From positions 584 to 64,583 of the forward strand of contig JBAYGC010000005.1 in assembly GCA_041666845.1 (NCBI GenBank): a stretch of 64,000 nucleotides of DNA. The letters are read 5' to 3'. Shown one piece after another: positions 12,359 through 33,393 of this stretch. The DNA comes from Patescibacteria group bacterium (GTDB lineage Bacteria; Patescibacteriota; Patescibacteriia; UM-FILTER-42-10). Numbering within the stretch: position 1 is the first letter of the stretch; the number at the start of each line of letters is the position of its first letter. The position numbers were made by a program, and so were the translations under genes. Below the pieces are notes generated by a model. The model was not told the origin of the DNA, did not search any database, and worked only from the letters and a program-made list of their open reading frames with translations.

Positions 12359-12916
12359 TTATGTTCCTAAAATATCGTCATCGAGAATATGATCCAGTTT
12401 CTCGTCCAGTTCCTCGAGCGATACTTTCTTCGGTTCCTTCTTAACCGGTTTTACTTCCTTTTCTTCTTCTAGCGGTTTCGGATCGGCAAATGAAGGTCTC
12501 GGTACGGCAGGTGCTTCCACTTTGGCGGCGACCGGTTCTTCGGCTGCGAAGATTGGTTTCACTTCCGCCGGTTTCTCAATTCTTCTTTCCTTGGCTTCTT
12601 TCGCCCGTTTCTCCGCTCTGGCGATTGCCAAAACGTCCCGGACGGTTACGATGTGTCTGGTTACTTCGTCCATAATCGCCAGTTCTTTTTCAATCTTGCG
12701 CAGATTGGCGCCCGGCAGATCAAAATCAACCTGCACGTAAAAACCATAGCGCTGGTTTTTGATCGGGTAGGCCAGTTTTTTCTTGCCCAGGTTGTTGTCG
12801 CGGACGATCACGCCCTCGTTTTTCTTGATCAGTTCGAACACTTTGTCGCGAACAAAAGGAATCTCTTCCTCAGAAATTTTGGAAGAGACAATTACTAAAA
12901 GCTCGTAATTTTGCAT
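12359..12916 (-). CDS. rpsF: 30S ribosomal protein S6 with Lys/Glu/Pro-rich C-terminal extension
   Basis: The S6 core starts at internal Met (MQNYELLVIVSSK...). An AGAGG RBS sits 8 nt upstream of ATG at 12916. The longer 323-aa ORF in the track has a non-S6 N-terminus and was rejected. Operon order is rpsF-ssb-rpsR. Confidence 0.85.
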   Translation of the reverse strand: MQNYELLVIVSSKISEEEIPFVRDKVFELIKKNEGVIVRDNNLGKKKLAYPIKNQRYGFYVQVDFDLPGANLRKIEKELAIMDEVTRHIVTVRDVLAIARAEKRAKEAKERRIEKPAEVKPIFAAEEPVAAKVEAPAVPRPSFADPKPLEEEKEVKPVKKEPKKVSLEELDEKLDHILDDDILGT

Positions 12917-13037
12917 ATTTTGACCTCTTTCTTGCCTGTCCATCTTGAAATGGTCGTCTATTTCCAAGACATGGGATTGAGCAGGCATTAATTTATAAGT
13001 TGTAAAGTTCCCCGCAATCTTACCAAAGGCAGGGGAA

Positions 13038-13150
13038 GGTGTCAACCCCCACACCCATACATGGGTGTGGGGGTTGCGTGTTGCGTTCCGCTTTCCAAAA
13101 AACCCGATTTCTTTAACCCCAAACCGGTTGCTTGTCGTAGCACGCGCGGT
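13038..13150 (+). repeat. R-module repeat (perfect 14-bp-stem hairpin CAACCCCCACACCC/GGGTGTGGGGGTTG, then AAAAAACCCGATTTCT...TTGCTTGTCG)
   Basis: Homologous copies occur at 17497-17545 (partial), 18727-18845 and inverted at 26110-26190. Confidence 0.7.
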
Positions 13151-13320
13151 GATTTGTTTTATAACGTTTCGGGTTAGTCGATGTCTGGCGATAGAGGAGT
13201 ATGGGCGGAGGTTTGCTAATAAGCAAACCGGAGTCAGATATTCGCTGTTATATGGTGTACGTATTTTCCTTTGATTTGGGACAAGCAAGTCTTTCAAAAA
13301 AGTATTATGAATTTCGTTTT

Positions 13321-15081
13321 TTACCACCAAGCTAGTCTTTTCATATGTTCTTCGTATGCAGTGGAATTTTTTTGAAATTCGGTAAAAGACTTATTGAATA
13401 GGCCTGCAGATATTGGGCCCCAATGATCTTTGCTTTTATCCGCTTCATCTAACATCATTTTGAAAGGATTTTCACCGAAGCGTCTTTGATATTTCCAGGC
13501 AAATCTACCAGGAGGCCCCCAACCACTTTGATTGACGTGTGAATACTCAAGGGCAAAAAGTATTTCAAAATAATCGAATAGATATTCGTAATTTCTTCCT
13601 AAGAAAAGTAAGTCTTCTAAAGTTGGCTGTAAAGTAGTAAACAGTTGCTCGCTTCTCGGCGCATAATGCCTTTCTCGACCAGGTATCCACTTAAATGATT
13701 CATGGATTTCTGACAAATTTGCCCCCACTGGAGTAACAAGTGCTTCACTTTGATCCGACAGGGGCTCTGGTCTTACTGGAGTTTCAAAAATAATCTTTAG
13801 CGCACCATAATTCTGACTGGACAGGGCAGTAATACCTGCCGAATACATTAGTAGTTGAATTGGATACCAAGTAAATCGAAGCCATAGCACCGTTCCTGAT
13901 GAACCTTTATCGGCTTCAGCCAAACGTGTAAATATTTTATTGAGCTGTTGTAATTGTTCGCTGTTACCCCATTTAGCCAACAAGATAGAGATAACTTGTA
14001 GGTCTTTCGATAATTCTTCGTATTCACTCAAACGTTGAATAAATTGATCCTTTTGAGCAGGGATTCCCTGTACTGGGAAATTACGTAAATCAGTTTCATC
14101 CAAAAAATGGCGAATGTGCTTTGAAACAAAATCATCTAATTTGATCTTGTTTGAAGGAACTGATAGCAATTCTTTGATTGTGTCGGCGATCGGTGTTTTT
14201 GGTTCAAATGGAGTCTCAATTTGAGGTGATGTATTCACTAAGATATCAACCTCTCCAGGCTCACCCTTTTCAGATGATTCGGGCTGAGGGGAGGAATTCT
14301 TTTTTTGTTCTAATACAGAGGTGTCAAAAATAAATTCGCCGTCACCATCCACAAAACCATAATGAGGAGTTTGGTGTGAGTATTGATCATTAGCAACATG
14401 GTCAAACACGTATGCCATTACGCCACTTGCCGAGATAATGCCGTCTTTTGTTGAAGCTGCCCCATCCAAAGCGTCTAGTAAGTGAGAAGTAAAAATCGAA
14501 TGGTCCGGTCTTGTTCCGTTCCCATCTGCGACTGTCTCATTAGCTTTACCGGCAGTAAGTAGTTGGCGTGAATATCGTTTTAGCATGTCTCCAATAAAGC
14601 GCATACTGCCTAGTGATGGGGTACGAAGAAAGGCTAATCCCCCATAGCACGCATCCATAAGAAAGAATATGTGCTTGGCAGGAATTAAATCAGAATTTCT
14701 AGTAAATTCGTCCCATCGAATTAATGTATCAATTTCATCTGGTTTGCCTTCGGCTGGAACAAGATAGCCGACCTCACCTCTTTTTCCAGAAACAGTATGG
14801 CCATGACCAGCATAAAATACTATCAACCTGTCGTCGGGGAGAGTCTTTTTAAAATCAAGAAATGATTTATTGATGGTATCCTTTGTTGCGTCTTTGTCGA
14901 TTAGTAAGGAAATATTCGATTTTGGAAACTGAAACTTTTTTTCTAAAATATCGGCAACTGCTTCGGCATCACTTTTTGCATACCCTAAAGGAGGGGCAAA
15001 TTTGTATTGATTAATACCAATTATTAATGCCCAGCTATTTGTATATTCTGGTTGGTAGACTAGTTTTTCTTGGGAGGACAT
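13321..15081 (-). CDS. Caspase-like peptidase (C14/CHAT-type His-Cys dyad) with ~330-aa uncharacterised C-terminal domain
   Basis: The N-terminal ~250 aa have caspase-fold spacing: ALIIGINQY...VFYAGHGH (catalytic His)...FLMDACYGG (catalytic Cys). The C-terminal half has no recognisable motifs. Confidence 0.75.
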   Translation of the reverse strand: MSSQEKLVYQPEYTNSWALIIGINQYKFAPPLGYAKSDAEAVADILEKKFQFPKSNISLLIDKDATKDTINKSFLDFKKTLPDDRLIVFYAGHGHTVSGKRGEVGYLVPAEGKPDEIDTLIRWDEFTRNSDLIPAKHIFFLMDACYGGLAFLRTPSLGSMRFIGDMLKRYSRQLLTAGKANETVADGNGTRPDHSIFTSHLLDALDGAASTKDGIISASGVMAYVFDHVANDQYSHQTPHYGFVDGDGEFIFDTSVLEQKKNSSPQPESSEKGEPGEVDILVNTSPQIETPFEPKTPIADTIKELLSVPSNKIKLDDFVSKHIRHFLDETDLRNFPVQGIPAQKDQFIQRLSEYEELSKDLQVISILLAKWGNSEQLQQLNKIFTRLAEADKGSSGTVLWLRFTWYPIQLLMYSAGITALSSQNYGALKIIFETPVRPEPLSDQSEALVTPVGANLSEIHESFKWIPGRERHYAPRSEQLFTTLQPTLEDLLFLGRNYEYLFDYFEILFALEYSHVNQSGWGPPGRFAWKYQRRFGENPFKMMLDEADKSKDHWGPISAGLFNKSFTEFQKNSTAYEEHMKRLAWW

Positions 15082-15249
15082 CTTTTAAAAAACGAAATTT
15101 ATAATGATTTTTTGACGGAGCGATAGCTTGAATGAAGGCATATATGCCTTATAATTTGTTTATTATACGAAGCTTTCTGTATCAAGCCCCGATTCCAGTC
15201 TAGCACAATTGCTAATGGTAGGTAATTTGGATGAGTGGGTTAAATAATA

Positions 15250-15597
15250 TTACAGGTCTAAATCGTCAACAATAATTGCACCTGTGACATCTCGTGTATC
15301 TTGTTTTAGTGATTCCAGGTCCTTTTCATCAATGCCTTGTTTCATATCAGTATAGATTTTCTTCATATCCTCACGACTAACTTTTAGCGCTTCCGCAAGT
15401 GCCAATAGCTTTATATCGTTACCGATTCGTGCCACTCTTAGCATTTTCCTGTTAAACTCAACTTGGCGACTGATTTGAAAGCCAACCCAAAGTATGCAGA
15501 GGAAGAAGTAGAACATGAACCATTTAATATCTTCTATAAAGATAATTATGACTAATCCAATGACAGTGAAGAATATGAATTCATGGAAATTTTTCAT
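15250..15597 (-). CDS. Small membrane protein (2 TM plus a charged C-terminal tail)
   Basis: 115-aa ORF. Two N-terminal hydrophobic helices, then a soluble Lys/Asp/Glu-rich region. Confidence 0.5.
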   Translation of the reverse strand: MKNFHEFIFFTVIGLVIIIFIEDIKWFMFYFFLCILWVGFQISRQVEFNRKMLRVARIGNDIKLLALAEALKVSREDMKKIYTDMKQGIDEKDLESLKQDTRDVTGAIIVDDLDL

Positions 15598-15662
15598 AGA
15601 ATAGTTGTTAGTTAATATTATTTAGTTCACGAACCGGCTAGCCCGTGTTAGCTGATGTACTG

Positions 15663-16319
15663 TTAATACTTCAGTAACCCCGCTTTTTTTAAAGCCCTGG
15701 ATATTTCTCTATGATCTTTATCGATCGCTTGTCTCTTAACAAAGTTTGGATTTTTCTTGCATCGTTTTTCTATTATCTTGATTAAGTCTTTGAATACACC
15801 CCGTACCTCATCGAGACTTTTTTTGCTGCTTGGAAATCTTTTACCATGAAATGAGAAGTCGTCTCCAATAAAGTTACCAAAATCAGAAATATGGACACGT
15901 TTTTTTCGGCTTGGTGTTAAAAAGCCAAGACATCGGTCTTCAATATGCTCCAGATGGTTCCTGATAGTTTTTATCTCAAATATATCCTTGATTCTGGTTT
16001 CAAGACTTTTAATTTCAACATCGCCTGTTTCCTCATACAAATTATGTAACAGTTTGTAAATCTTATCTATACAAATAAAGAAGAAATGAGTATCGCATGC
16101 AAGGTAGGTATGTAGAAATTTGTTCTTCCTGCTAAAATTTCCACCATGCGCTCTAGCGATGAACCTTCTCATTTCAGATCTGTGTTTTTCTAATCGTCTT
16201 ATCTCTAAGATTGACCCATTCACATAATTCTGAATGTTATTGAGCAGCAAAAAAAGCCGTGTGGATTTTTTAGCATTCGTATCAAGGTAGGGATAGTATT
16301 TGGTTATTGAATCAAACAT
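15663..16319 (-). CDS. Hypothetical protein with a HEPN-like R-x4-H motif (RNHLEH)
   Basis: 218 aa. IKTIRNHLEHIEDRCLG matches the Rx4-6H signature of HEPN RNases. No other recognisable motif. Confidence 0.35.
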   Translation of the reverse strand: MFDSITKYYPYLDTNAKKSTRLFLLLNNIQNYVNGSILEIRRLEKHRSEMRRFIARAHGGNFSRKNKFLHTYLACDTHFFFICIDKIYKLLHNLYEETGDVEIKSLETRIKDIFEIKTIRNHLEHIEDRCLGFLTPSRKKRVHISDFGNFIGDDFSFHGKRFPSSKKSLDEVRGVFKDLIKIIEKRCKKNPNFVKRQAIDKDHREISRALKKAGLLKY

Positions 16320-16486
16320 GATATTAACAGTATTTCTTCTAACTTTTTATTTTGCTATCTTCACCGTGAAATTAGCATAATTCTCTATAGTTAGCAATAA
16401 TCACGAACAACCCCCACCTTTTTGCCAAAAGCGGGGAGGGAAAGGGAGGAAATTACTCTATTTAAACAAAACTCTAATGATACCCG

Positions 16487-17419
16487 CTATTGGTTGTCTT
16501 TTTTCAGTATCAGAAACAACTGGGCCAGGATCAACAGCCCGAAGAAAATCCCTAGGTTCACTCCGGCGGGGATGGCGAAGGCCGGCACGATTTTTTCCAT
16601 TTCATATAACGGCAGATCCATCTGATCAAACAAAGCATTGGTTGAGTGTCTCAGAAAAGTTATGCTAAAAGTTAGAAACAGTAGAAGATAGTATACTGCC
16701 AATCCGAATCTGGCAAAGCGACGGTTGTGATAAAAAAGATAAGACAGAACTAATATCGCGAAGATTGCAAAGCTCAAAAGGTAAGTACCCTGTGCCTTAA
16801 ATATGAAATTGCCAAATAGGGGAAAAGCGCCTTGGAGGAAGATGAAAAGAAAAAATACAGAAACCCAGAGATAGTTCAGCAGTATGATCGCAAGTTTATT
16901 GGTCGAAAGGTTGGCGAAATAACTGTCTGAATTGGTAGTGTTAAACAATTGCTTGGTTTTTTCGTTTATGTAAAATTTTATCAAAAAGTAAGGTATGGCA
17001 ATCAAAAAGAATGAAATAAGAATTATGATGGTCAGCGATTGATAGGGCGCTATGGTTTTAAGCAGATTAAAGGAAAGCAGAATACTGGCTGTTGTTATGC
17101 TTCCAATAATAATAAGTTTTTTTAAGAATGCAATAGACAGATTGTATCCCCATTTTTTGAATCGGAAATTCCCGATCCCGAGGGGGATGCCAAAAAGTGC
17201 AAAGAAAAAATATGCCATTACATTGAGCACTATAAATGCAAACATCAGACTGCCAAAGCCAAAGCCTTCGTAGTGAAAATTTCCTCCTTCAGCAAATGCA
17301 TAAAAGGATGTGAATTCGGCAGGGACCAGCAACATCGAAAACAACCCGCCGACCAGCAGGACAAGTCCGATAGTTTTTATTAACAAGACTCTTTTGTTTG
17401 ATCCCGGTTTTGTCGCCAT
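16487..17419 (-). CDS. Polytopic membrane protein (~9 TM), function unknown
   Basis: 310 aa, with hydrophobic helices throughout. Confidence 0.6.
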   Translation of the reverse strand: MATKPGSNKRVLLIKTIGLVLLVGGLFSMLLVPAEFTSFYAFAEGGNFHYEGFGFGSLMFAFIVLNVMAYFFFALFGIPLGIGNFRFKKWGYNLSIAFLKKLIIIGSITTASILLSFNLLKTIAPYQSLTIIILISFFLIAIPYFLIKFYINEKTKQLFNTTNSDSYFANLSTNKLAIILLNYLWVSVFFLFIFLQGAFPLFGNFIFKAQGTYLLSFAIFAILVLSYLFYHNRRFARFGLAVYYLLLFLTFSITFLRHSTNALFDQMDLPLYEMEKIVPAFAIPAGVNLGIFFGLLILAQLFLILKKDNQ

Positions 17420-17496
17420 CTCTTCAAAATCAAATTTATCTTTTAAATTTGGTACTATTTCAGTCTAGCACCAAGGTTATAGCCGGGCAATATGCA

Positions 17497-17630
17497 CAAA
17501 AAACCCGATTGCTATAATTCCAGACTAGTCGCTTGTCGGAGAGGGTTCTAAATAATTGTGGATTCCCGGGTCCTGCCTCGCCTTGATCCGGCGGAGCGGC
17601 GGCAAGGCGGGCAAGCCCGAGAATGACAGT
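17497..17630 (+). repeat. Partial R-module (17497-17545) plus P-module variant (17560-17630: GGATTCCCGG...GGCAAGCCCGAGAATGACA)
   Basis: Shares both ends with P copies at 18864 and 25975. The inner core is divergent. Followed by TTGACA at 17637. Confidence 0.6.
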
Positions 17631-17712
17631 AAATTATTGACACTAACGGGTGTTTTGTAGTAAAAGAAAGGCACCTGCGCCAACCACGTTTTCCAAATTG
17701 AGGGGGGTGTTT

Positions 17713-17916
17713 ATGTCTTCAGATCTTAGGGCGGCGGTGATCAAATACACTGCCAAACAGCTCGGCGTGAGCGAGGATCAGGTCACCTTGGACACGGTGA
17801 TTCCCGACATCCACAGTCTGGTCACATTCGTGGCCATCGAGACCGGTAAGATCAGTTTCGTCCAGGATGTCCGTGCGAAGCACACCGTGGCGAAGGCGAT
17901 CAAATCGTTCCTTTAG
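17713..17916 (+). CDS. Acyl-carrier-protein-like small protein (67 aa), compositionally foreign (GC ~53%)
   Basis: Strong SD GAGGGGGG 6 nt upstream of ATG. The sequence follows the ACP pattern (QLGVSEDQVTLDT...DIHSLVTFVAIE), with Ser in HSL aligned to the phosphopantetheine-Ser position of DSL. Immediately downstream is a terminator. Confidence 0.5.
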   Translation: MSSDLRAAVIKYTAKQLGVSEDQVTLDTVIPDIHSLVTFVAIETGKISFVQDVRAKHTVAKAIKSFL

Positions 17917-17918
17917 TA

Positions 17919-17947
17919 GGGGTCGGATGTCTAGACCCCTTTTTTTA
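17919..17947 (+). terminator. Rho-independent terminator
   Basis: GGGGTC-GGATGTCTA-GACCCC followed by TTTTTTT. Confidence 0.8.
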
Positions 17948-17965
17948 TTTCCGCGAAAGAGAGGA

Positions 17966-18325
17966 TTATTGTTCAGCTTTTTTCTCAATCTTTTTCGCCA
18001 CAGTGCGGTTGAGATCATTGCGCCAGTTGTTGGTAAAGGTTTTTGTTTCGCCTAAGAGTCCGTCACAGAAGGCGGCTACATCTTGTCCTGTAATCTCCAG
18101 CGCGCTTCGACCATTGATGACTCCTTCTTCGAAGAGTTCGAGTAAACCTTTCAATACGTCTATTGATCCCAGTCCATTTTTAAACATGTAGCCTTTGATT
18201 TCATCATAGACAATCTGATAATCACGGGGCATTTTTTTGGCACGCGCTTCCATAGCCCGCCATTCTTTTTTATCGCCGGTTACTTTTTTCCAGAAGTTGT
18301 TGATCTCTTTTAATACGTTAGCCAT
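17966..18325 (-). CDS. DUF1048-like protein (PadR-associated)
   Basis: 119 aa immediately downstream of, and overlapping, a PadR regulator. This pairing is typical of PadR-DUF1048 operons. Confidence 0.5.
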   Translation of the reverse strand: MANVLKEINNFWKKVTGDKKEWRAMEARAKKMPRDYQIVYDEIKGYMFKNGLGSIDVLKGLLELFEEGVINGRSALEITGQDVAAFCDGLLGETKTFTNNWRNDLNRTVAKKIEKKAEQ

Positions 18326-18629
18326 TTGATTGTTCCTTTAGTTTGTTAATACTTTTTGTGATAAATTGCCATTTCCCCCAGAAGACGGACAGCTCCTTGC
18401 GTCCCGCGCTGTTGAGTGTATAGAATTTGCGCATCGGTCCCAGCTCGGAAGACCTTTTTTTGATATTCACCAGCCCGCTTTTTTCGAGCCTTAGGAGGAT
18501 GGTGTAAACCGTTCCTTCCACCACCTCTGTGAAGCCGAGTCCGCGGAGCTTGGATGCTATTTCGTAGCCGTAGGTTTCCTCCCGGCTGATGATCTCCAGG
18601 ATACAGCCCTCGAGTACGCCTTTTAACAT
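18318..18629 (-). CDS. padR: PadR-family transcriptional regulator
   Basis: MLKGVLEGCILEIISREETYGYEI...GTVYTILLRLEKSGLV is the classic PadR winged-HTH. The start was taken at the internal ATG (18629). The track ORF extends to a GTG at 18692. Confidence 0.8.
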   Translation of the reverse strand: MLKGVLEGCILEIISREETYGYEIASKLRGLGFTEVVEGTVYTILLRLEKSGLVNIKKRSSELGPMRKFYTLNSAGRKELSVFWGKWQFITKSINKLKEQSNG

Positions 18630-18680
18630 TTCCGTAATGTTTTCCAAAGTATTTCTCCTTTCCAATATTACTTGCTTAAT

Positions 18681-18707
18681 ATGTAGTATCACTTACTACC
18701 ACTACAT
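18681..18707. promoter_or_regulatory. Candidate PadR operator: ATGTAGT-N13-ACTACAT inverted repeat
   Basis: Palindrome ~50-75 nt upstream of padR. PadR operators are ATGT...ACAT palindromes. Also contains direct repeats TAGTATCAC x2. Confidence 0.45.
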
Positions 18708-18726
18708 AGTATCACGTAGTAGTTTT

Positions 18727-18845
18727 GGTGTCAAGAGATAGGGATTAGGTTTTAAGGGTAGGGTTGCCCCCACACCCAAGGCTGGTTGTGGGGGCTCTCC
18801 AGAAAACCCAATTTCTGTTGCTATGACTGGTCACTTTTCGGTGGA
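18727..18845 (+). repeat. R-module repeat (hairpin GCCCCCACACCC/GGTTGTGGGGGC plus CCAGAAAACCCAATTTCT...)
   Basis: Alignable with 13038-13150 (GGTGTCAA...CCCCCACACCC...GTGGGGG...AAAACCCGATTTCT). Confidence 0.7.
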
Positions 18846-18863
18846 CGTTTTCTAAAAACTTAT

Positions 18864-18965
18864 GGATCCCCGGATCCCCGGCCGCCTAACTGCCGTTAGG
18901 CAGTGGGGCAGGCAAGCCCGAGGATGACAATCAAATAACAAGTCATTCCCGCGAAAGCGGGAATC
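18864..18965 (+). repeat. P-module: ~100-bp MITE-like element with terminal inverted repeats GGATCCCCGG...CGGGAATCC
   Basis: Near-identical to 25975-26098 (59-bp core GGATCCCCGGCCGCCTAACTGCCGTTAGGCAGTGGGGCAGGCAAGCCCGAG[G/A]ATGACA). An internal perfect 7-bp hairpin GCCTAAC-TGCC-GTTAGGC overlaps an alternative CTGCC-GTTA-GGCAG stem. Confidence 0.75.
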
Positions 18966-19076
18966 CATGGAATTAATTTGATGCTGATATTAGCTAAAAT
19001 TAGCCCATTTAGTATTGACCCCGTTAGAGGAGTTCCTCTAAGCGGGGTTGACAAAAACCCAGTTTAGGTGTATGCT
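18966..19076 (+). promoter_or_regulatory. Q-module with outward sigma70-type promoter (TTGACA-17-TATGCT) driving 19231..19803
   Basis: The element ATTAGCTAAAATTAGCCCA...TTGACCCCGTTAGAGGAGTTCCTCTAAGCGGGGTTGACAAAA contains a 12-bp inverted repeat and ends in TTGACA at 19048. The -10 TATGCT is at 19071. An inverted copy lies at 25866-25985. Confidence 0.6.
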
Positions 19077-19230
19077 GTCAGGTTTCATGGTTCATTGAAA
19101 TATCACTGCGTATATTGCCGTGGCGTCCAGATTAGAAAGAAGATCAGTCTAATTTGACCGCTCCGGCAATGTTGCCAAGCATGACATCCTAATGTCCAGT
19201 ATGGATTCCAAAGCCATGAAGGAGATTTCC

Positions 19231-19803
19231 ATGAAGAAGTCGTACATGACTCAGGACGACATCTACGTTGCCCAGGCGTGGAAGAGTCTGGCGAAGAAGC
19301 TGTTTCCTTGCCAGATCGTCGTGACGCTGGTCATGGTGACGCTGACCTACATCGCCCGGCGCTTCATCAATCACCACTATTTCGATCATGTGGTGACGGA
19401 TGCTGTCGCTGGCAACATCCCCAACGTGGTGATCGCGCTCGTAGCGTTCATCTTCGCCGGTGTGTTCGCGGTGGCTGTCGCGACCAACATCGCGTTCAGG
19501 AACGCACCGATTCGTACGATCACGCTCGTTCTGCTCACGTTCCTGGTACCTGCTGTGATCGGCGCCTTCTCCAGCTTCTGCTCGCACATCTATCTCCGGC
19601 CGGCGGATATCGTGTATGATTTCATTCCGGCGGTTCTGCTCATCGGGGTCTGGTGGTACACCAGCAACGCGCTCGATGAGGCCAGCGGATCGAACTTCGG
19701 TCAGAGCAAGGTCGCGAAAAGGATTCGAAACAGGATCGAGTACGCCTGTATCGGACAGTTCGCGATCTTCATGATTCTGATGGCCTACGTCATCGGGATT
19801 TAA
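19231..19803 (+). CDS. Polytopic membrane protein (5-6 TM), compositionally foreign (GC ~58%)
   Basis: SD AAGGAG lies 6 nt upstream of ATG at 19231. The track ORF starts 13 codons earlier, without an SD. The sequence is hydrophobic throughout. The antisense 211-aa ORF was rejected as a high-GC artefact. Confidence 0.65.
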   Translation: MKKSYMTQDDIYVAQAWKSLAKKLFPCQIVVTLVMVTLTYIARRFINHHYFDHVVTDAVAGNIPNVVIALVAFIFAGVFAVAVATNIAFRNAPIRTITLVLLTFLVPAVIGAFSSFCSHIYLRPADIVYDFIPAVLLIGVWWYTSNALDEASGSNFGQSKVAKRIRNRIEYACIGQFAIFMILMAYVIGI

Positions 19804-19954
19804 CTGCCCTTTTGACCTGAGCAAGTCCTAAGAAGTGCTCACCCGCCAGGTAACTGACGGGTTTTTTCTTTGCCAAAAAATATTAACCGATAATCAAAAA
19901 CAAGCGCGGTCAAACCCGCGCCTGCATTTATATTTTTTACAAACAGTTATTTGA

Positions 19955-20611
19955 TTAGTTGCATTTTTCAAATGATGTGAGGTGTTTATCCTGTGAGGCA
20001 TCCATCAGGCTTGTAAATACCGTTGTAATATCTTCGTATTCGGTCACGGCGGGCAATAATTCATCTCTGTACAATCTCGCGTTGGCGATCTCAGCTTCTA
20101 CTCCCACCTGACATGTTTCTTTTATTGTCACGGGGATTTCAATAGTCGCAGGCTGATATGGATCCTCGGGTATTGTCTCGCCGTATTTATCATACAGCGC
20201 TTTCAGCGAACTGATGTGCTGTTCTTCCGCGCGGATGATCATTGAAAACGGCCGGACTGATCCGAATTTGCTTATTACCGCCTCATAAGTGGCGCGCGCT
20301 TTGTATTCGTCGTCAATAGCGCTGTTTAAGGCAGTCACAACGCTATTTGGTAGTTCACCCGCCGGATATTCCAGATTGCTGACCTGCAGACAATCGTCCG
20401 CCACGCAGTTGGATTTTGTGATAACTTCCGTTTCCGAGGTGTTGGTGTTCGAAATATTGACGTTACTAGTGTTTACATTACCGGCATTCACATTGTTTAA
20501 ATTAACGTTTTGGTTTGAATTATCATTCTGGAAATAATTATAAGATACAAATGCCCCGGTTAAAATTACGATAACTCCTAAAACTATGATCCCGTATTTC
20601 ATAATCATCAC
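19955..20611 (-). CDS. Membrane-anchored ferritin-like DUF2202-family protein
   Basis: N-terminal TM, Asn-rich linker, then a ferritin-like segment (SAIDDEYKARATYEAVISKFGSVRPFSMIIRAEEQHISSLKALYDKYG). Confidence 0.6.
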   Translation of the reverse strand: MMIMKYGIIVLGVIVILTGAFVSYNYFQNDNSNQNVNLNNVNAGNVNTSNVNISNTNTSETEVITKSNCVADDCLQVSNLEYPAGELPNSVVTALNSAIDDEYKARATYEAVISKFGSVRPFSMIIRAEEQHISSLKALYDKYGETIPEDPYQPATIEIPVTIKETCQVGVEAEIANARLYRDELLPAVTEYEDITTVFTSLMDASQDKHLTSFEKCN

Positions 20612-20713
20612 CCTTAATAATTAACGTGCAATTTGATTATAGCAAGTTTATTTTGCCCACTATAATGCCCCTTTCCCAAAATTCTGAAAGGGGCACTGAC
20701 TGGAGAGAACTTT

Positions 20714-21157
20714 TTAGCTTGCTAGATCACACTCACCGTCACCGGTTCCGTTCCCACTACCGTTTCCAGCGCCATTATTCTGTCCATTACCGCCCTGGCC
20801 GAACCCCAGGCCTCCGGAATATGGTCCTTCGCCGGTTTCACGTAGCTCGTTTCTCTGCGCCACTCTTTCTGCAATTTCTTCTTCACTGAAACCGCGTTCC
20901 TGCCATCTGGCCACCGCATTTGCTTCCATTTGCGCGTTCATTTCATCGATACTGACGCCCTGCTCCAAAGCGATCTCTTGATAATCTTTTGTCTCGCGTG
21001 CAGCAGAAAGCTCTTCAGTCGTCATACCTAGAATTTCCGCTTTTGTTTCCAACATGTTTGTTGAACCGTTACCGTTACCTTGCGCGTATACGACACCGCC
21101 GGTTAATGTTGCAATCGCAGAGATACCGAGGATGCCGCCTAATAAATATTTATTCAT
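20714..21157 (-). CDS. Secreted protein with signal peptide and Gly/Asn-rich C-terminus
   Basis: Signal peptide MNKYLLGGILGISAIATLTGGVVYA. No recognisable catalytic motif. Confidence 0.5.
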   Translation of the reverse strand: MNKYLLGGILGISAIATLTGGVVYAQGNGNGSTNMLETKAEILGMTTEELSAARETKDYQEIALEQGVSIDEMNAQMEANAVARWQERGFSEEEIAERVAQRNELRETGEGPYSGGLGFGQGGNGQNNGAGNGSGNGTGDGECDLAS

Positions 21158-21329
21158 ATAATTTTATTATTTGTTAATGTTAATTATTAATCCGACCTTT
21201 CACAACCTACTTGCATTCCCTTACTACGTGGTGGTATGGTATTTTATTTCAAAATATTTCCACAAAAAAAATTCCACTTATCGCGGAACTGCTATTCTAT
21301 TCAATGATGAGAAACTTGGATCAGCCGGC

Positions 21330-21593
21330 TTATTTGAAAGCGATTATCTGGAAACCGTATTTATCTACTTCTGCTTCGGTCCAGAAATTTTGGTCTTTGG
21401 TCTTAATAACGTGAGTAACCTCTTTTTCTATTTTCCGACCTGAATATTTTTTGGTCTGAGGATCCCATTCTTTCAATACCAGAAGATCGCCCGGCTGACA
21501 GTCGAAATCAGCCAATCGGAGTTCATATTTTTTGTCCCCGTCCATTATTTTTTGAAAATATTCAGGCCAAATTTTCTTTTCAATTTTTTTCAT
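21330..21593 (-). CDS. DUF3850-like (ASCH/PUA-like) small protein
   Basis: KIWPEYFQKIMDGDKKYELRLADFDCQPGDLLVLKEWD resembles the DUF3850 N-terminal signature. Confidence 0.45.
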   Translation of the reverse strand: MKKIEKKIWPEYFQKIMDGDKKYELRLADFDCQPGDLLVLKEWDPQTKKYSGRKIEKEVTHVIKTKDQNFWTEAEVDKYGFQIIAFK

Positions 21594-21623
21594 GTGAGCA
21601 ATGTTTGTGATACGGGTAAAGCC

Positions 21624-22316
21624 CTATGTCTTCTCAACCTTCTTTTTAATTTCTTCCAGAATTTCGATCTGCATTTCCTGTATCTGCATCATTTTTGACC
21701 ATTGATCCAGAAGCAGATGATCCACTTTCTCGTGCAGTGTCCGTATTTCGATTTCCGATTTTAAATTGACCTTGTAATCATTTTCCGATCTGATTCGGTC
21801 TTTCTTCTCCTGCCGGTTCTGACTCATCATAATGATCGGCGCTTGAATAGCGGCGATGCAGGATAAGATTAAGTTCATCAAAATGAAGGGGTAGGGGTCG
21901 AATGGCTTCTTCAGAATAAGCATACTGTTTAATGAGATCCACCCGAATAATATAATGAAAAATATAATAATGAATTTCCAACTGCCGCCGAACAGTGCGA
22001 CTCTGTCAGAAATCTTATCACCTAATTTCAAATCTTCTTTTGCCAGGACATTATCATTTTCTGTAATTGTTTCATTTTCTTTTATACTTTTTAACACTTC
22101 ATTCTGCAGATTCTGAATATTTCCCGTTTCTTCTTTGATGATGTTTAGTATGTATTTATCTCGGTATTTGTTGTAATCATCTTTACAAATCTTATTTGTA
22201 TCCGACCAGTCCGGAAAATCAATTCGAATCAAAGATTCAATCTCATGCCGGATGCCATGTCCTGATATCAGATCATCAGCTGAAAATGTTTTTTTACAAA
22301 TGTCACAAGTATTCAT
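21624..22316 (-). CDS. DUF1003-family membrane protein with N-terminal zinc-ribbon-like CxxC
   Basis: FGGSWKFIIIFFIILFGWISLN...PFDPYPFILMNLILSCIAAIQAPIIMMSQNRQ is the DUF1003 core. Followed by a C-terminal coiled coil. Confidence 0.6.
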   Translation of the reverse strand: MNTCDICKKTFSADDLISGHGIRHEIESLIRIDFPDWSDTNKICKDDYNKYRDKYILNIIKEETGNIQNLQNEVLKSIKENETITENDNVLAKEDLKLGDKISDRVALFGGSWKFIIIFFIILFGWISLNSMLILKKPFDPYPFILMNLILSCIAAIQAPIIMMSQNRQEKKDRIRSENDYKVNLKSEIEIRTLHEKVDHLLLDQWSKMMQIQEMQIEILEEIKKKVEKT

Positions 22317-22338
22317 ATTAGTGGCCTCCCATTATTTT

Positions 22339-22833
22339 TTAAACCACTTTGGCATAAAGATACGCGTCGTGTAGTTCATCACCGCGCCGCGCCGCTTTGC
22401 GCATAATGCCTTCTTTTTTGTATCCGCATTTGATCGCTACTTTCTGACTGCCGGAATTTTTAGTATTCATCTTGATTTCGATCCTGACAAGTTTCATTTT
22501 TTTGAATCCTATTTTTTCCAACTGTTTTACCGCTTTGGTGGTGATACCTCTGCCCCAGTAGGCCTCGTCTAGAAAATAACCGATCTCTCCGCACTGTTTA
22601 TTGTCGGGGTTGATTTTGATTCCGCAACCGCCTACCATCTTTGTATCGTACATGATAGCGAAGTGCTGGTTCAGACTCTTTTTATTCTGCTTGGCGTGTT
22701 TCTGAAGTATCTTTCTTTCTGCTTCAATTGATTTTGGGCAGATCCGGAAATAAATAAAATTGGGGTTGTTTAATATTTCATAAAACCTTTTGGCGTCGGA
22801 TACTTTCTGTTTGCGGATTGTTACTTTGGGCAT
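22339..22833 (-). CDS. GNAT-family N-acetyltransferase (RimJ/RimL-like)
   Basis: Acetyl-CoA binding motif (QCGEIGYFLDEAYWGRGITTKAVKQL). Start taken at internal ATG (MPKVTIRK). Confidence 0.75.
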   Translation of the reverse strand: MPKVTIRKQKVSDAKRFYEILNNPNFIYFRICPKSIEAERKILQKHAKQNKKSLNQHFAIMYDTKMVGGCGIKINPDNKQCGEIGYFLDEAYWGRGITTKAVKQLEKIGFKKMKLVRIEIKMNTKNSGSQKVAIKCGYKKEGIMRKAARRGDELHDAYLYAKVV

Positions 22834-22834
22834 G

Positions 22835-23059
22835 CTATTTATGCATTTGATTTGGATGATTACCGTTGCCTTCCTCAATAATTTTTATGATAATTAATGA
22901 GATTACGGAGGCGACAAGTATAACACCTAGTGTGCTTAGTGCTTTCCAGGCAACATCATCATTGTATACACCCCAAATAGAAAGTATGGATAATGTTGCC
23001 ATCAAAATGACGGCCATGGTAAGTATAATCGCTACCCATCTTCGGGCTGTTTTTAGCAT
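22835..23059 (-). CDS. Small membrane protein (2 TM)
   Basis: 74 aa, hydrophobic. Its stop abuts the start of the GNAT gene, suggesting translational coupling. Confidence 0.45.
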   Translation of the reverse strand: MLKTARRWVAIILTMAVILMATLSILSIWGVYNDDVAWKALSTLGVILVASVISLIIIKIIEEGNGNHPNQMHK

Positions 23060-23169
23060 AGTATTTTTGAATTATTGATTTAAGTCTTCGGAATATGAGG
23101 CTTTAGCTTTATATGAGGTAAGGCTAAAGCCTTACATTCCATTACCATTTAATTTTTAATGTCTTCAAA

Positions 23170-24258
23170 CTAGTTATCACTTTTTGCTGAAGCTTGTTGA
23201 ATCCGCCGACAGCGTTCCAGGTGATAGTCATAAAAAACACATCCTTCGCCAATACAGCTGGTACGTGGGCAGACGGTGGCAAGTTGGTTCGGATCAATCG
23301 CTTTTTTTAAAATTTCCTTAATTTCTTCTAAGCTCAATCTGGTTGGCGTCACGCCCTCCGGTGCGATCCCGCCGTTCTGAATGCTATTGGCAGTGGTGTC
23401 ATAATACCATTCTTCCACCCCCTTCAGGCGAGCGGATTTTGCCAGTTCATCAATGCTGGTGATTTCTAAGATAGCATCTTTCTTGCGTGCCTCTTCTATC
23501 CGGAGCATGACAGCGACGTCTTTGAGGTTGATGTCGCGCATTTGCCTGGTAATCAAGTTGGTGTGTCCCGTAGAAAGTCTTTGTACGACTACATCCGCTT
23601 TAGTGTCCGGATTTGCCCGCAAAAAACCCACCAGACTAATATCATCATTTTCTACGACCACGATTTTTACCAGTTTCTTACCCTGGAATACTTCAAACTG
23701 GTCGGTCTTTTTTTCCTGCTGGAGTTTTTCCCATTCCTGCGGAAGAACGGTCATTCTTTTGCGTTCCTCGCGGTAGTGTGAAACAAAAATCGGCATGACA
23801 ATATTGATAATCTTCTGCGGCTCACTTTGGTATTCGCGGTTCAGGTTCATAATCAGGCCGGAAAGGCCGAAAGCCCGGTCGATCGGGTCGCTCGAGATAA
23901 TCCCTTTTCCTTCCAGATCGTCTCTTTTGACATAAGTAATCAGTTTCTTCAGTGCTGGGTCATTTTCCACACCTAGGAATTTTGCCACCAAAGTAGTGGC
24001 ACATTCTCCCGTGTTATCTTTACCGCCTTCCTCGGTGTGGTGGTCAAATTTTCCGCCACCCATGTCGATGAGTAAAATACCCTCGCTTTCCAGTTCATCA
24101 GTATTCCTGCCTTCCGGAACACTGTTCCAGAATTCAATCTTGCTGTTTCTAACCCCCGGGAACTTTTCTTCGCCAAAAAGCTTCAATAACATAATCGCTA
24201 CGATATTGTCCGGATGCGGACGGGGAAAGATTACGATTGTATGGATTGGTTGGGACAT
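23170..24258 (-). CDS. MYG1/UPF0160-family metal-dependent hydrolase (putative 3'-5' exoribonuclease) with C-terminal Cys-rich zinc-ribbon
   Basis: N-terminal H-P-D-N-I-V-A-x-x-LL matches the MYG1 motif H-x-D-E-A-L-A-x-x-LL. LLIDMGGGKFDHH matches MYG1 VVDVGGEYD...YDHHQ. C-terminus is CPRTSCIGEGCVFYDYHLERC. Host-like GC. Confidence 0.6.
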   Translation of the reverse strand: MSQPIHTIVIFPRPHPDNIVAIMLLKLFGEEKFPGVRNSKIEFWNSVPEGRNTDELESEGILLIDMGGGKFDHHTEEGGKDNTGECATTLVAKFLGVENDPALKKLITYVKRDDLEGKGIISSDPIDRAFGLSGLIMNLNREYQSEPQKIINIVMPIFVSHYREERKRMTVLPQEWEKLQQEKKTDQFEVFQGKKLVKIVVVENDDISLVGFLRANPDTKADVVVQRLSTGHTNLITRQMRDINLKDVAVMLRIEEARKKDAILEITSIDELAKSARLKGVEEWYYDTTANSIQNGGIAPEGVTPTRLSLEEIKEILKKAIDPNQLATVCPRTSCIGEGCVFYDYHLERCRRIQQASAKSDN

Positions 24259-24560
24259 GGGGTTTTTATACTGTCATCAAAGTAATTACTGAATGTCACT
24301 TCGACCGTAGTGGACCCGCCTCGCGTCGACGAGTAGAAGCGAGTCGAGGCGGGGAAGTCTATAGATTTCTCGGCTTCGTCTTGCTTTGCGCGACTACGCT
24401 CGAAATGACACACAGGAGGGAAGTAATGGTTTCATACATAAGTATAACGCAAAAAGCTTTATAAAAAAAGTAGGCCCCCGGAGTAAATCATCATGCAGAA
24501 TTGCAGACGAAATACTCGCGGGGGCACAGGGGTGAAAGAGCGAAACGATGCTGGCGAACG

Positions 24561-25616
24561 CTAGCGGATGGTTTCCTTCACCAGGTCGATGAAGGTCTCC
24601 GCGCGCCGGCCGGTCGGAGTGGTGTTGCGAGCGCCACCCGAACCGTTGAGGATCGCGTTGATCCTCGTGTCATAGAACCAGAGGTCCTTCGCGTCACGGC
24701 CGTCGGTGCGGTAGGCACTCTCGGTCGCGATGATGACGTCGTACAGTCGGTTCAGGTTGATCCGCGGCTGGACCCGGTTGGAGGTCAGGATGACGATCCG
24801 CTTGGAACGACTGACTACGATGATCAGGTCGACCCGACCATCGTTGAGGAGGGCGCGGGGGACACGGGTGTCGTCGGTGTGGATCAACACACCGCGTTGA
24901 TCCCGACCACTGGACTTGAAGACGAACTTCGTCGTGTCCTTGTGGTCGAGGATGTCGATCGCCTTGTCCTTGGCCACCTCGTTGGCGGCCTTGCACTTGG
25001 CGAACACCTCGCGCCACCAACGAGCCTCGCGGAGGATCTCACTGTCGGTGGCGCCGGTGATCATCAGGTTACGGATGTAGCCTGCCATACACCAGGGGGA
25101 CTCGTGGTTGCCCAGATGCTGGACGAGCGTCTGGACGTCGGGATGCCGACGGTCCACGGGGACCTTCAGCTCCTTGCCGATGCTGTTGACGTAGGCGTCG
25201 ATCACGCGGAAGATCCGCGAGATGACGGTCATGGGGGCATACCCTTGCTTGTACATCTCCCGAAGGAGCCATACGAGCGAGTAGGGCAGACCCTTAAGTC
25301 CACCCGTCTCGTTGTTCTCGTTGCAGATCGCAACGAGCGGGATCAGGCGGTGACTGCGAACCTTCAGGGTCTCGGCGACGATCTCCGTCGCGGAACCCTT
25401 ACCGGCCACTTGGTACTTGTACGGACCGATGTCGATGATGAACATGCGGTCCCGCTGCCACTCGTCGATCTGGGACTGTTCCGGCTGGAACTCGCCCGAG
25501 AGCACGAGGTTGAGGTCTTCGAGCTTCGTGACCGTGAACCTGCAGTACAGGTACAGGGCGACGATCTTGTCGAACACCGGACGAGCGGGGATGACGACGC
25601 CAGTAAACCGCTTCAT
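24561..25616 (-). CDS. Divergent, probably catalytically inactive paralogue of the adjacent MYG1/UPF0160-like protein (GC ~60%)
   Basis: Collinear with 23170..24258 (PARP/FPRP N-terminus, FIIDIG vs LLIDMG, FYDTRINAILNGSGGARNTTPTGR vs YYDTTANSIQNGGIAPEGVTPTR). It lacks both His motifs (VFD for HPD, GPYKYQ for GGGKFDHH). Strong SD AAGGAG sits 6 nt upstream of ATG at 25616. The antisense 407-aa ORF was rejected. Confidence 0.7.
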   Translation of the reverse strand: MKRFTGVVIPARPVFDKIVALYLYCRFTVTKLEDLNLVLSGEFQPEQSQIDEWQRDRMFIIDIGPYKYQVAGKGSATEIVAETLKVRSHRLIPLVAICNENNETGGLKGLPYSLVWLLREMYKQGYAPMTVISRIFRVIDAYVNSIGKELKVPVDRRHPDVQTLVQHLGNHESPWCMAGYIRNLMITGATDSEILREARWWREVFAKCKAANEVAKDKAIDILDHKDTTKFVFKSSGRDQRGVLIHTDDTRVPRALLNDGRVDLIIVVSRSKRIVILTSNRVQPRINLNRLYDVIIATESAYRTDGRDAKDLWFYDTRINAILNGSGGARNTTPTGRRAETFIDLVKETIR

Positions 25617-25865
25617 GGCTTTCTCCTTCGGCCAGAAGTAGGTGCACATGTGTCTCGGGAATCGAGACGGTCATGTTTTCAAGGAGCGGATCTCCTTGTT
25701 GGAGCCCGCGATCACTTACAGTGATCCTAGGCTCAAACAAAAAGCTTTCAGTGTACACATGGAGAGACTCTGAAAGCGCTGAATGTTGACATAGCTCTCT
25801 CCTCTGTCCTCCGTAGTGCCGCGAATGCGGTACGAAGGAGTGACAGAATTCTATGTTAACAGGCC

Positions 25866-25985
25866 AGTATACACCCAAAAGGGGGTTTTGTCAACCCCGT
25901 TAGAGAAACTTCTCTAACGGGGTCAAGACTGTGTGGGCTAATTTTAGCTAATGTTAGCAATTAATTAATTTGATGGATTCCCGGA
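25866..25985 (-). promoter_or_regulatory. Inverted Q-module with promoter TTGACA-17-TATACT pointing leftward toward 24561..25616
   Basis: Its reverse complement aligns with 18966-19056. -35 is at 25889-25894 and -10 at 25866-25871, both on the minus strand. Confidence 0.6.
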
Positions 25986-26098
25986 TCCCCGGCCGCCTAA
26001 CTGCCGTTAGGCAGTGGGGCAGGCAAGCCCGAGAATGACAAATAATACACCCCACCCCTGTCATTCCGGAATCCGACGAGAGGAGGATATCCGGAATC
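25975..26098 (+). repeat. P-module copy (MITE-like, TIR GGATTCCCGG...CCGGAATC)
   Basis: Core identical to 18864-18925 except one base. The right-end hairpin ATTCCGG...CCGGAAT is present. Confidence 0.75.
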
Positions 26099-26109
26099 TA
26101 TCTTAATCC

Positions 26110-26190
26110 GCTCAAGCGCTCCGACAAGCGACCTGTCTAGGATTATAGTAATATGGTTTTCTGGAGAACTGAACCCCACCCTTAACCTTT
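26110..26190 (-). repeat. R-module copy in inverted orientation, abutting the uvrC start
   Basis: The reverse complement (CTCCAGAAAACCATATTACTATAATCCTAGACAGGTCGCTTGTCGGAG) aligns with 17497-17545 and 18800-18845. Confidence 0.55.
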
Positions 26191-26219
26191 AGGCAATAGA
26201 CAAGTATAATTAAAACACC

Positions 26220-27983: not shown

Positions 27984-28438
27984 TGACTGAACAAAAAGCA
28001 ATTAATAAAAAATTAACCATGTGGAAGAAATGGAGAATTATTATCCTTGTTGCATTATTTCCAGTTATATATAGTATTCCTTTCTCTGTGTTTTGGAGAC
28101 AGATATTATGGGCATATTATATTGGTTATTTAGCAAGCATTGTTGGAGGTTATCTCAAAACAGCATTTTCAAAAGTATTCAGTATTACGAAGTCAGTTGA
28201 AAATGCAAAAGGAAATTCAATAATACGTTCAATAGTATTCATTTTTATTGTAGTGGTGTCTGTATTTATAGGCTGGATATTTATTACGTTGTATATGATA
28301 GTGGATCTTATGATTAGTCAGGGTCAAGGAGATGTGGAATTATGGATGATAATGATTAGCATTTTCAGTTTCTTCAGCCCTACACTATGGCAATTTATCC
28401 GTAGTGGTTTATCTGAGAAACATATAAATAATTCCTGA
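27983..28438 (+). CDS. Membrane protein (4 TM), unknown function
   Basis: Its start overlaps the uvrC stop (TAATG). Hydrophobic. Confidence 0.5.
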   Translation: MTEQKAINKKLTMWKKWRIIILVALFPVIYSIPFSVFWRQILWAYYIGYLASIVGGYLKTAFSKVFSITKSVENAKGNSIIRSIVFIFIVVVSVFIGWIFITLYMIVDLMISQGQGDVELWMIMISIFSFFSPTLWQFIRSGLSEKHINNS

Positions 28439-28638
28439 TTCAAATTATAAAAAAGGAACGTGGACTGATCAGTCCACGTTCCATTGACGGAAAACAATAT
28501 GCCAGCAAAGAAAATAAATATTGAAGAGGAGAGTGAAGCACTGAAAGCAATCCGACGGCAGAAAAAGAAATCACCCAGAATGAAGGTTTCGGGGGGTTCT
28601 GTTCGTGAGCTCGCGAGGATTATTAAAAATAAATCTGT

Positions 28639-28692
28639 AAAAAAGTAACCATTGCCCGATGCATTTATTTCATAAATGCCCGGGTCGCAATG
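28639..28692 (-). terminator. Intrinsic terminator downstream of pcrA (long imperfect palindrome plus T-run on minus strand)
   Basis: CCATTGCCCGATGCATTTAT-TTC-ATAAATGCCCGGGTCGCAATGG. AAAAAAG precedes it on the + strand, giving a T-run on the minus strand. Confidence 0.55.
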
Positions 28693-28707
28693 GTTTCTCT
28701 ATTTCTA

Positions 28708-33161: not shown

Positions 33162-33198
33162 AATATACAAAGAGTGGTGGTAATAAAGAAAAAAATAT

Positions 33199-33216
33199 GC
33201 CGAAGTGGTGAAACTG
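33199..33216 (+). repeat. Direct duplicate of the first 18 nt of tRNA-Leu (GCCGAAGTGGTGAAACTG), 108 bp upstream of the intact gene
   Basis: Exact match to 33307-33324. It is followed by a structured segment with overlapping 9-bp and 13-bp hairpins. Confidence 0.7.
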
Positions 33217-33306: not shown

Positions 33307-33393
33307 GCCGAAGTGGTGAAACTGGTATACACGCAGCGTTCAGGACGCTGTGGGCGCAAGCCCGTGGGAGTTCAACTCTCCCCTTCGGCACCA
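33307..33393 (+). tRNA. tRNA-Leu (anticodon CAG), type II with long variable arm
   Basis: Manual fold: acceptor GCCGAAG/CTTCGGC. D-stem GTG/CAC. Anticodon stem CAGCG/CGCTG with loop TTCAGGA. Variable arm GGGCGCAAGCCC. T-arm GGGAG-TTCAACT-CTCCC. Discriminator A plus an encoded CCA. Confidence 0.85.

Follow-up and report, generated by a model that had tools for sequence, protein, structure and literature searches.

Predicted hairpin repeats of the Ssn-related motif kind lie among conserved promoter-upstream regions in a hypervariable island of a Patescibacteria genome

A window of 64,000 nucleotides from a Patescibacteria group bacterium (the whole stretch analysed here; GenBank assembly GCA_041666845.1, contig JBAYGC010000005.1, positions 584 to 64,583) contains three recurrent sequence modules, referred to as R, P and Q. 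The locus very probably mixes hairpin repeats (P) with promoter-upstream regions that are not mobile (R and Q). Judged by its sequence, P is a pair of hairpin DNA repeats of the kind described as Ssn-related motifs (SRM) or Neisseria Transformation Sequence (NTS), which in characterised members are the targets of small Ssn nucleases. P is a known kind of element in a new host, where it also takes a variant form with a nested hairpin. A repeat search recovered each module at the place given by an earlier, sequence-only reading of this DNA, in which the three had been joined into one small, possibly mobile, promoter-delivering element.

The NTS (CGTCATTCCCGCGMAVGCGGGAATCYRG) and the broader class of SRM were defined by Chenal et al. 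(Nat Commun 2025; PMC11893778). According to that paper, the GIY-YIG protein SsnA (94 aa) binds the NTS hairpin and makes its cut in single-stranded DNA immediately on the 5' side; NTS or SRM repeats typically flank ssn genes, and most of the description concerns Neisseria and further members of the Pseudomonadati (PMC11893778). The plan of an SRM unit is GTCAT, a G+C-rich hairpin and ATCC. The published search pattern, HGTCWYN(0-2)YYVSBRHN(0-5)WNVSBRGN(0-2)RNCYNB, which admits a loop of up to about 5 nt, has one match in the window (18941-18968) where 0.15 would be expected. Compared by hand, this segment agrees with the Neisseria NTS consensus (PMC11893778) at 26 of 28 positions, and it holds the core palindrome ATTCCC-N8-GGGAAT at 18945-18964. 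A relaxed hairpin scan of the window returned nine matches, against 1.4 expected, and five clear G+C-rich units (17562-17627, 18874-18928, 18942-18964, 25977-26039 and 26060-26097), all of them intergenic and all at 17.5-26.1 kb. More degenerate units, both missing from the earlier reading, lie at 24293-24411 and 25806-25844. The predicted units are listed below; L numbers designate contigs and loci used for comparison.

17560-17629, minus strand: variant P, long-form SRM unit, GTCATTCTCGGGCTTGCC...CCCGGGAATCC, with a nested hairpin of a second subtype (fold z -4.5; repeat match 17606-17636).
18862-18930, minus strand: P core of site 3, one long-form SRM unit, TTGTCATCCTCGGGCTTGCC, nested hairpin, CCGGGGATCCAT (repeat search, relaxed scan).
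18941-18968, plus strand: canonical NTS-like SRM unit, AGTCATTCCCGCGAAAGCGGGAATCCAT (published pattern match and NTS consensus).
24293-24411, no strand assigned: SRM-like pair without ssn, GTCACTTCGACC...CGCTCGAAATGACA, between two 362-aa genes (folds; synteny with L131 and L133).
25806-25844, minus strand: SRM-like hairpin, GTCACTCCTTCG...CGGAGGAC, within the 5' leader of the 362-aa gene (alignment of relatives).
25973-26041, minus strand: P core of site 4, long-form SRM unit, 97% identical to 18862-18930 (repeat search).
26060-26099, plus strand: long-form SRM unit of a third subtype, GTCATTCCGGAAT...ATCCGGAATCT (relaxed scan).

The two P cores lie in direct orientation and share 67 of 69 nucleotides, which bears out the near-identity previously noticed between the copies at 18864 and 25975. 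Read on the minus strand they run TTGTCATyCTCGGGCTTGCC ... CCGGGrATCCAT, and each is predicted to be a single reverse-oriented SRM unit with a second hairpin nested in its loop. The flanks and outer stems follow the SRM plan and the nested hairpin takes up 20-40 nt; the P cores are filed here as an SRM variant, not as strict members. Long-form examples, 36 in number, were found across phyla, and their nested stems are unlike in sequence yet paired (e.g. ACCCTCGGC/GCCGAGGGC vs ACACTCGGG/CCCGAGTGC). The nested-hairpin subtype of variant P also occurs in L077, and the third subtype has three copies in L133 and one in L131; a hairpin related to that at 25806-25844 is present in L133/L134, and none was seen in L128 or L131. 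The terminal inverted repeats GGATTCC/GGAATCC, which had been taken for the ends of one element, are instead the 3' flanks of two facing hairpin units. The integron attC site was considered as well, since GCCTAAC...GTTAGGC in the nested hairpin resembles the core sites of attC, and was set aside: the motifs stand only 4 nt apart, there is no integrase, and the nested sequences of other copies are unrelated.

The resemblance reaches far beyond this lineage. A scan of one genome per species with the 19-nt 3' end of P (GGCAAGCCCGAGRATGACA) found it in at least 120 genome stretches from many phyla, the hosts among the matches listed including Saccharibacteria, Uhrbacteria, Berkelbacteria, Nitrospira, Treponema, many Alphaproteobacteria, Dehalococcoidia and others. 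At least 58 of the matches listed, about half or more under a strict filter, look like true hairpin units, and some others are chance or coding matches. The usual layout of these copies is GTCAT-hairpin-ATCCAG, a short spacer and CTGGAT-hairpin-ATGAC, that is, two inverted GTCAT-hairpin-ATCC units. The pairs of the window consist of a reverse and a forward unit with their GTCAT ends facing across a spacer of 11-19 nt. A phage origin of P was rejected, as its 3' end had no match in 2.9 million viral contigs.

This distribution bears directly on the proposal that the hairpins are ordinary bidirectional terminators or insulators, repeated through the duplication of intergenic regions. The hairpins are indeed G+C-rich and intergenic, those of Q and R abut -35 boxes, and the two R-P-Q loci are paralogous. 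However, duplication within one genome does not explain a 19-nt end found in many phyla, nor would it leave P cores far more alike than their flanks; no T-runs follow the P hairpins, and at three clusters both flanking promoters read away from the hairpins, which leaves nothing to terminate. We regard the proposal as hardly credible.

As single-stranded DNA the P segments fold far better than shuffled sequences (z -3.1 to -4.5), and these scores, together with the covariation of the nested stems, indicate hairpins that are stable as single strands, as SRM units are. Strong predicted folds and nested stems that covary across genomes could also be read as signs that P, and perhaps R, are structured small RNAs or cis-regulatory RNA elements, and a TGCTATAAT-like box in R points at P in two of the four copies. 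Yet Rfam gave no matches in the window at gathering scores, and even at E up to 5 over 12900-26400 none overlapped the R or P cores; the few matches that reached a module scored well under the gathering threshold, with FtrB covering the NTS unit and Q at 30.7 bits (vs 66) and BsrG covering Q at 17.2 (vs 55). In addition, three of the four P clusters stand between divergent promoters and upstream of both, the two unit orientations occur within one cluster, and the family goes together with a gene for a DNA nuclease. Consensus folding of the R core yielded no structure on either strand (about -1.9 kcal/mol), and R was rejected as a structured RNA on that account. The alternative of a structured non-coding RNA family, left standing by the sequence-only reading, is thus highly improbable.

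The link between SRM-type repeats and the nuclease gene was seen in relatives. In L071 and L077, from other Patescibacteria, P-type units 91-95% identical to that at 18862-18930 stand on both sides of a 95-aa open reading frame (ORF) with a Pfam GIY-YIG domain (E 5e-16). Syntenic loci of close relatives were retrieved through homologues of the 362-aa protein, and in L131/L132 and L133/L134 a GIY-YIG gene of 95-96 aa, flanked by forward and reverse SRM, lies between two 36x-aa genes. These ssn-like genes (11269-11559 in L131, 11234-11521 in L133) are orthologous in position to 24259-24560 of the window, where the SRM-like pair stands alone; in L128 the pair at this spot is degenerate. The ssn-like genes of the sister genomes have 29% G+C, compared with about 39-44% for their loci. 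A Hyphomicrobiaceae locus, L056, has the layout [+] ssn [-] with a long-form unit adjacent. Units flanking a small single-domain GIY-YIG gene on both sides were seen in L071, L077, L131-L134 and L056, and not in the window. The proteins have 95-96 aa, vs 94 aa for Neisseria SsnA, and their homologues of about 95 aa number 2316, in many phyla, at 60-70% identity. In the Protein Data Bank, no Ssn structure was found, the sole match being the distant UPF0213 entry 1zg2.

This comparative evidence suggests that an SRM-ssn-SRM unit has been gained or lost at a fixed site among close relatives. In the comparison with insertion-free alleles, proposed by the sequence-only reading, the ssn-carrying form occupies an orthologous site in some genomes and is missing there in others, and at the uvrC site of L131 a clean excision of R and P was not seen.

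The same architecture, of short imperfect palindromes in alternating orientation and intergenic mosaic clusters, is shared by repetitive extragenic palindromes (REP) and bacterial interspersed mosaic elements (BIME), so that P units might be repeats of that type, mobilised not by Ssn but by an REP-associated tyrosine transposase (RAYT) related to IS200/IS605. REPs carry a GTAG-type tetranucleotide, whereas the conserved 5' motif here is GTCAT. The flanked gene encodes a GIY-YIG protein, and no gene of a Y1 (IS200/IS605-like) Pfam family was found among those called in the window or in the locus of any relative. This origin seems barely plausible to us, although the REP/RAYT parallel is drawn in the Ssn paper itself (PMC11893778).

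What moves, and what stays, was seen in alignments of the spacer between uvrC and the 362-aa gene (five related genomes, plus L135) and of the spacer between padR or rpsF and the 203-aa gene (three genomes). The hairpin units between R and Q differ in each genome aligned. The P cores are 97% identical and the flanking R and Q 75-88%, and in one locus P is flipped relative to R and Q; the recently copied unit is therefore one long-form SRM, from TTGTCAT to ATCCAT, and not R-P-Q. Single SRM units turn over independently of their surroundings.

Against this background, the proposal that R, P and Q are modules of one non-autonomous element, similar to a miniature inverted-repeat transposable element (MITE), which carries an outward promoter and lands beside foreign genes, is very unlikely. 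It draws on the varied orders and orientations of the modules, on the strong promoters at the Q end and beside R, and on an 'empty' allele at the uvrC site, where L131/L132 are without R and P. However, R and Q stand at orthologous sites with the same neighbours in four to five related genomes while P alone turns over, and the genes driven by Q are conserved in the lineage. Target-site duplications, which the sequence-only reading had proposed to look for, were not seen when filled and empty alleles were compared, and the 'empty' site of L131 is a replacement, not a clean excision. The four R copies all lie in one 13-kb island, and there are almost none in the metagenome collection; the combination typical of MITEs, terminal inverted repeats with a target-site duplication and many dispersed copies, was not found. 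The idea of a small non-autonomous mobile element survives for P, which is gene-less and behaves as if copied independently, and is not supported for the R-P-Q composite, in which R and Q are orthologously conserved.

The repeat search matched R at 13096-13140, 17497-17541 and, inverted, 26119-26163 (about 80% identity), and nhmmer counted four copies in the window, confined to 13-26 kb, with full extents of 13046-13146, 17495-17548, 18767-18850 and, inverted, 26112-26180. The module spans about 70-100 nt and always lies just upstream of the promoter of an outward-reading gene (rpsF, a 310-aa gene, padR and uvrC), oriented the same way in each case. Copies occupy orthologous sites at uvrC (window, L128, L133 and L135), at padR (window and L128) and at rpsF (window, L131 and partly L133), and in the orthologues of L128 and L133 the R hairpin carries compensatory changes. 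A metagenome scan with the R core, in a collection that is incomplete for this lineage, gave two contigs of one sample, both from relatives, and R was rejected as a widespread element. R probably serves a control or architectural purpose upstream of promoters. Its copies and the associated promoters are as follows.

13017-13045, minus strand: rpsF promoter TTGACA-17-TAAGAT, with the R hairpin directly abutting (promoter scan, alignment).
13046-13073, no strand assigned: R hairpin copy 1, CCCCCACACCC / GGGTGTGGGGG (repeat search; fold z -4.5).
13078-13146, minus strand: R core copy 1, upstream of rpsF, CTaCGACAAGC...GGGTTTTTTGGA (nhmmer E 7e-20; orthologous copy in L131).
17495-17548, minus strand: R core copy 2, upstream of the 310-aa gene (16487-17419, minus strand) (nhmmer E 2e-14).
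18706-18734, minus strand: padR promoter TTGACA-17-TACTAT (promoter scan; conserved in L128).
18767-18794, no strand assigned: R hairpin copy 3 (repeat search).
18794-18850, minus strand: R core copy 3, upstream of padR (nhmmer E 2e-11; orthologous copy in L128).
26112-26180, plus strand: R core copy 4, upstream of uvrC (nhmmer E 6e-20; orthologous in L128, L133 and L135; absent in L131/L132).
26182-26210, plus strand: uvrC promoter TTAACC-17-TATAAT (promoter scan; conserved in all relatives).

Between 13046 and 18850, three R copies of the same orientation head consecutive operons, namely rpsF, a 310-218-115-C14 peptidase operon and padR-DUF1048. In L131, Q-R directly adjoins rpsF, vs three tandem R-headed operons between site 3 Q and rpsF in the window, and the tandem operons look like the insertion of R-headed gene blocks. 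An ATGTAGT...ACTACAT inverted repeat at 18681-18707 overlaps the padR promoter and is kept in L128; it is probably a PadR autoregulatory operator.

The Q module recurs, inverted and 81% identical, at 18949-19084 and 25858-25992. The earlier description of its end as TTGACA-17-TATGCT or TATACT was correct, and these promoters rank with the strongest matches of the promoter scan in this region. The Q hairpin folds with z -6.2 relative to shuffles.

18968-19076, plus strand: Q of site 3, with palindrome TTAGCTAAAATTAGC at 18990-19004, hairpin at 19017-19048 and TTGACA-17-TATGCT at 19048-19076, reading into the 203-aa gene.
25866-25975, minus strand: Q of site 4, with TTGACA-17-TATACT at 25894-25866, hairpin at 25894-25924 and palindrome at 25937-25951, reading into the 362-aa gene.

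Orthologues of Q at site 3 are present in L131/L132 and in L128. In front of the same gene families the palindrome and the promoter of Q are conserved, together with a long leader in the 362-aa family. Q is the native near-consensus promoter region of the 362-aa and 203-aa gene families, both of them lineage-specific, and the notion that it is a promoter delivered by an element is not supported.

Nor did the view that each Q points at a foreign gene stand up. The G+C content at third codon positions (GC3) is 0.86 for the 362-aa gene and 0.79 for the 203-aa gene, against about 0.35-0.55 for most genes. The 362-aa protein has homologues in Patescibacteria only, and those of the Q-driven genes are 65-81% identical, apart from one distant counterpart of the 203-aa protein in L128 (23%). 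The same extreme GC3 is kept by the relatives (0.73-0.85 in the 362-aa family, 0.72 in the L128 counterpart of the 203-aa gene); the bias is therefore an old property of these genes and not a sign of recent import, and foreign origin was rejected. The G+C-rich third positions also account for the long antisense ORFs.

Four genes of unknown function in the window have a GC3 of 0.71-0.86 (24561-25649, minus; 19192-19803, plus; 39997-40497, minus; 52350-52952, plus), and the two studied both have near-consensus promoters and show the bias in every relative. Several strong promoters have a G+C-rich hairpin ending in GGGG directly against the TTGACA -35 box (19017-19048, 25894-25924 and 13046-13073). 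These hairpins are not SRM units and have no T-run, and in relatives, including the uvrC loci of L133 and L135, they are present, absent or swapped for a different hairpin.

From the Q promoter to the 362-aa gene runs a 5' leader of about 215 nt (25650-25865, minus strand), almost invariant in L128, L131, L133 and L135. It also precedes an unrelated gene for a membrane protein of 179/190 aa (L128 14985-15170, L132 15575-15790). Its consensus fold (-27.7 kcal/mol) comprises four hairpins with a few compensatory pairs and has no Rfam match, and the leader is a candidate for a new cis-regulatory RNA.

Several observations weigh against the interpretation of the locus as SRM repeats mixed with non-mobile promoter-upstream regions. 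The published SRM pattern misses 18862-18930, 25973-26041, 17560-17629 and 26060-26099, the P cores escaping it because the nested hairpin makes the loop too long. The facing [-][+] arrangement occurs in none of the 58 units sampled from other phyla. No ssn gene is present in the 64-kb window, in the 3 kb upstream or in the 10 kb downstream, so that a cognate nuclease in this genome is hypothetical: phmmer and tblastn with three ssn proteins detected neither gene nor remnant in the window, and a motif regular expression for small GIY-YIG ORFs found none there, though it also missed the GIY-YIG domain of the window's UvrC and is therefore uninformative. Membership of the flanked proteins in the Ssn family (CDD cd10448) is putative, judged from the Pfam GIY-YIG match and their length.

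A mechanism can nevertheless be proposed. An SRM unit would fold when the DNA is single-stranded, and Ssn would, as in its characterised relatives, recognise the folded single strand and cut the same strand a few bases 5' of GTCAT; such nicking could spread units and limit recombination across them. Cutting by Ssn in this organism, and any effect on recombination or DNA uptake, would be expected by analogy with that family. Probably the units act as gene-less partners of an insertion sequence (IS)-like SRM-ssn-SRM unit and are spread and replaced in that capacity; the latter unit is present in the sister genomes and missing from the window, where its position holds an ssn-less pair. The SRM pairs are placed in the presumably untranscribed spacer between divergent promoters, as is the case for three of the four P clusters, and we infer that negative supercoiling there would favour hairpin extrusion.

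In the window, every copy of SRM, R and Q lies in the interval from uvrC to rpsF-ssb-rpsR. The DNA, part of a metagenome-assembled genome (JGI 3300037810 contig Ga0376277_0000430, and an ENA contig as well), has ordinary core genes, namely rpoBC, ftsK, recA, efp, rpsR, ssb, rpsF, uvrC, uvrD and uvrA. Gene content between the uvrC and rpsF-ssb-rpsR anchors is different in each relative examined, and the interval between uvrC and rpsF-ssb-rpsR-efp-recA is a hypervariable island. In Neisseria, NTS and dRS3 repeats are reported to cluster around variable islands of this kind (PMC11893778). A wider scheme, unlikely in our estimation, would make the uvrC-rpsF island a hotspot of cassette exchange, in which single SRM units and SRM-ssn-SRM are actively mobile, facing pairs between divergent promoters are cut by Ssn and so delimit tracts of recombination or DNA uptake, and R, at the head of three tandem operons in one orientation, serves as a junction or recombination site for adding operon-sized cassettes.

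Other features of the window were recorded alongside. The neighbouring proteins of unknown function had no match in Pfam, NCBIfam or PADLOC. Assemblies differ over 17714-18018, which is read either as a 67-aa gene on the plus strand (17714-17916) or as a 99-aa ORF on the minus strand (17719-18018); neither has a family match, the former has a ribosome-binding site, and a 68-aa gene lies at the corresponding position in L128. The sole match of a tRNA scan of the window is tRNA-Leu at 33307-33393. The first 18-20 nt or so of this tRNA-Leu(CAG) gene (GCCGAAGTGGTGAAACTG) are duplicated 108 nt upstream of it (33197-33216), followed by a palindrome, possibly a remnant of a past integration at this tRNA. 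At 38837-39797, the gene of a 1457-aa FG-GAP protein contains direct repeats (period 150-153 nt) that are ordinary protein-domain repeats. The Logan contig L002, an independent short-read assembly of the same organism covering 26004-29033 of the window, breaks within the P core, consistent with P being repeated in the genome.

These results extend the Ssn/SRM system to Patescibacteria, which have tiny genomes and rely on the uptake of foreign DNA. The nested-hairpin form of SRM is widespread and is missed by the published pattern, so that published repeat counts may be underestimates. IS-like behaviour of the ssn unit was only hypothesised in the original paper (PMC11893778), and the present comparisons suggest that close relatives gain and lose both this unit and single hairpin units at fixed sites. 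For annotation there is also a warning, in that conserved promoter regions interrupted by such hairpins can pass for composite mobile elements.

The closest known system is that of NTS/SRM and Ssn, with which the locus shares the GTCAT 5' flank, the G+C-rich hairpin and the ATCC 3' flank, intergenic units clustered around particular genes and, in relatives, a flanked single-domain GIY-YIG gene of about 95 aa. It differs in its host, since Patescibacteria, of the candidate phyla radiation (CPR), are not mentioned in PMC11893778, in the 20-40 nt nested hairpin that puts the window's P cores outside the published pattern, and in the facing GTCAT ends of pairs in a window devoid of ssn; here the nuclease activity and any part in DNA uptake or recombination are putative.

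Correia elements, the Neisseria MITEs that supply promoters, are likewise small inverted-repeat elements beside genes and associated with promoter activity, but the promoters of the present locus belong to the conserved R and Q, and neither target duplications nor long transposon-type terminal inverted repeats are seen. The minimal mobile elements of Neisseria are variable gene sets between conserved flanking genes. With these and the dRS3 repeats the locus has in common the core palindrome at 18945-18964 and the placement of repeats in a region of variable gene content bounded by housekeeping genes (uvrC, rpsF-ssb), whereas no phage or IS110-type recombinase targeting the repeat was seen here. 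REP/BIME and RAYT, finally, offer the same mosaic clusters of alternating short palindromes, with a unit-flanked form that carries the gene and many gene-less copies; the nuclease is of the GIY-YIG type here and HUH/Y1 there, and the conserved flank motif differs.

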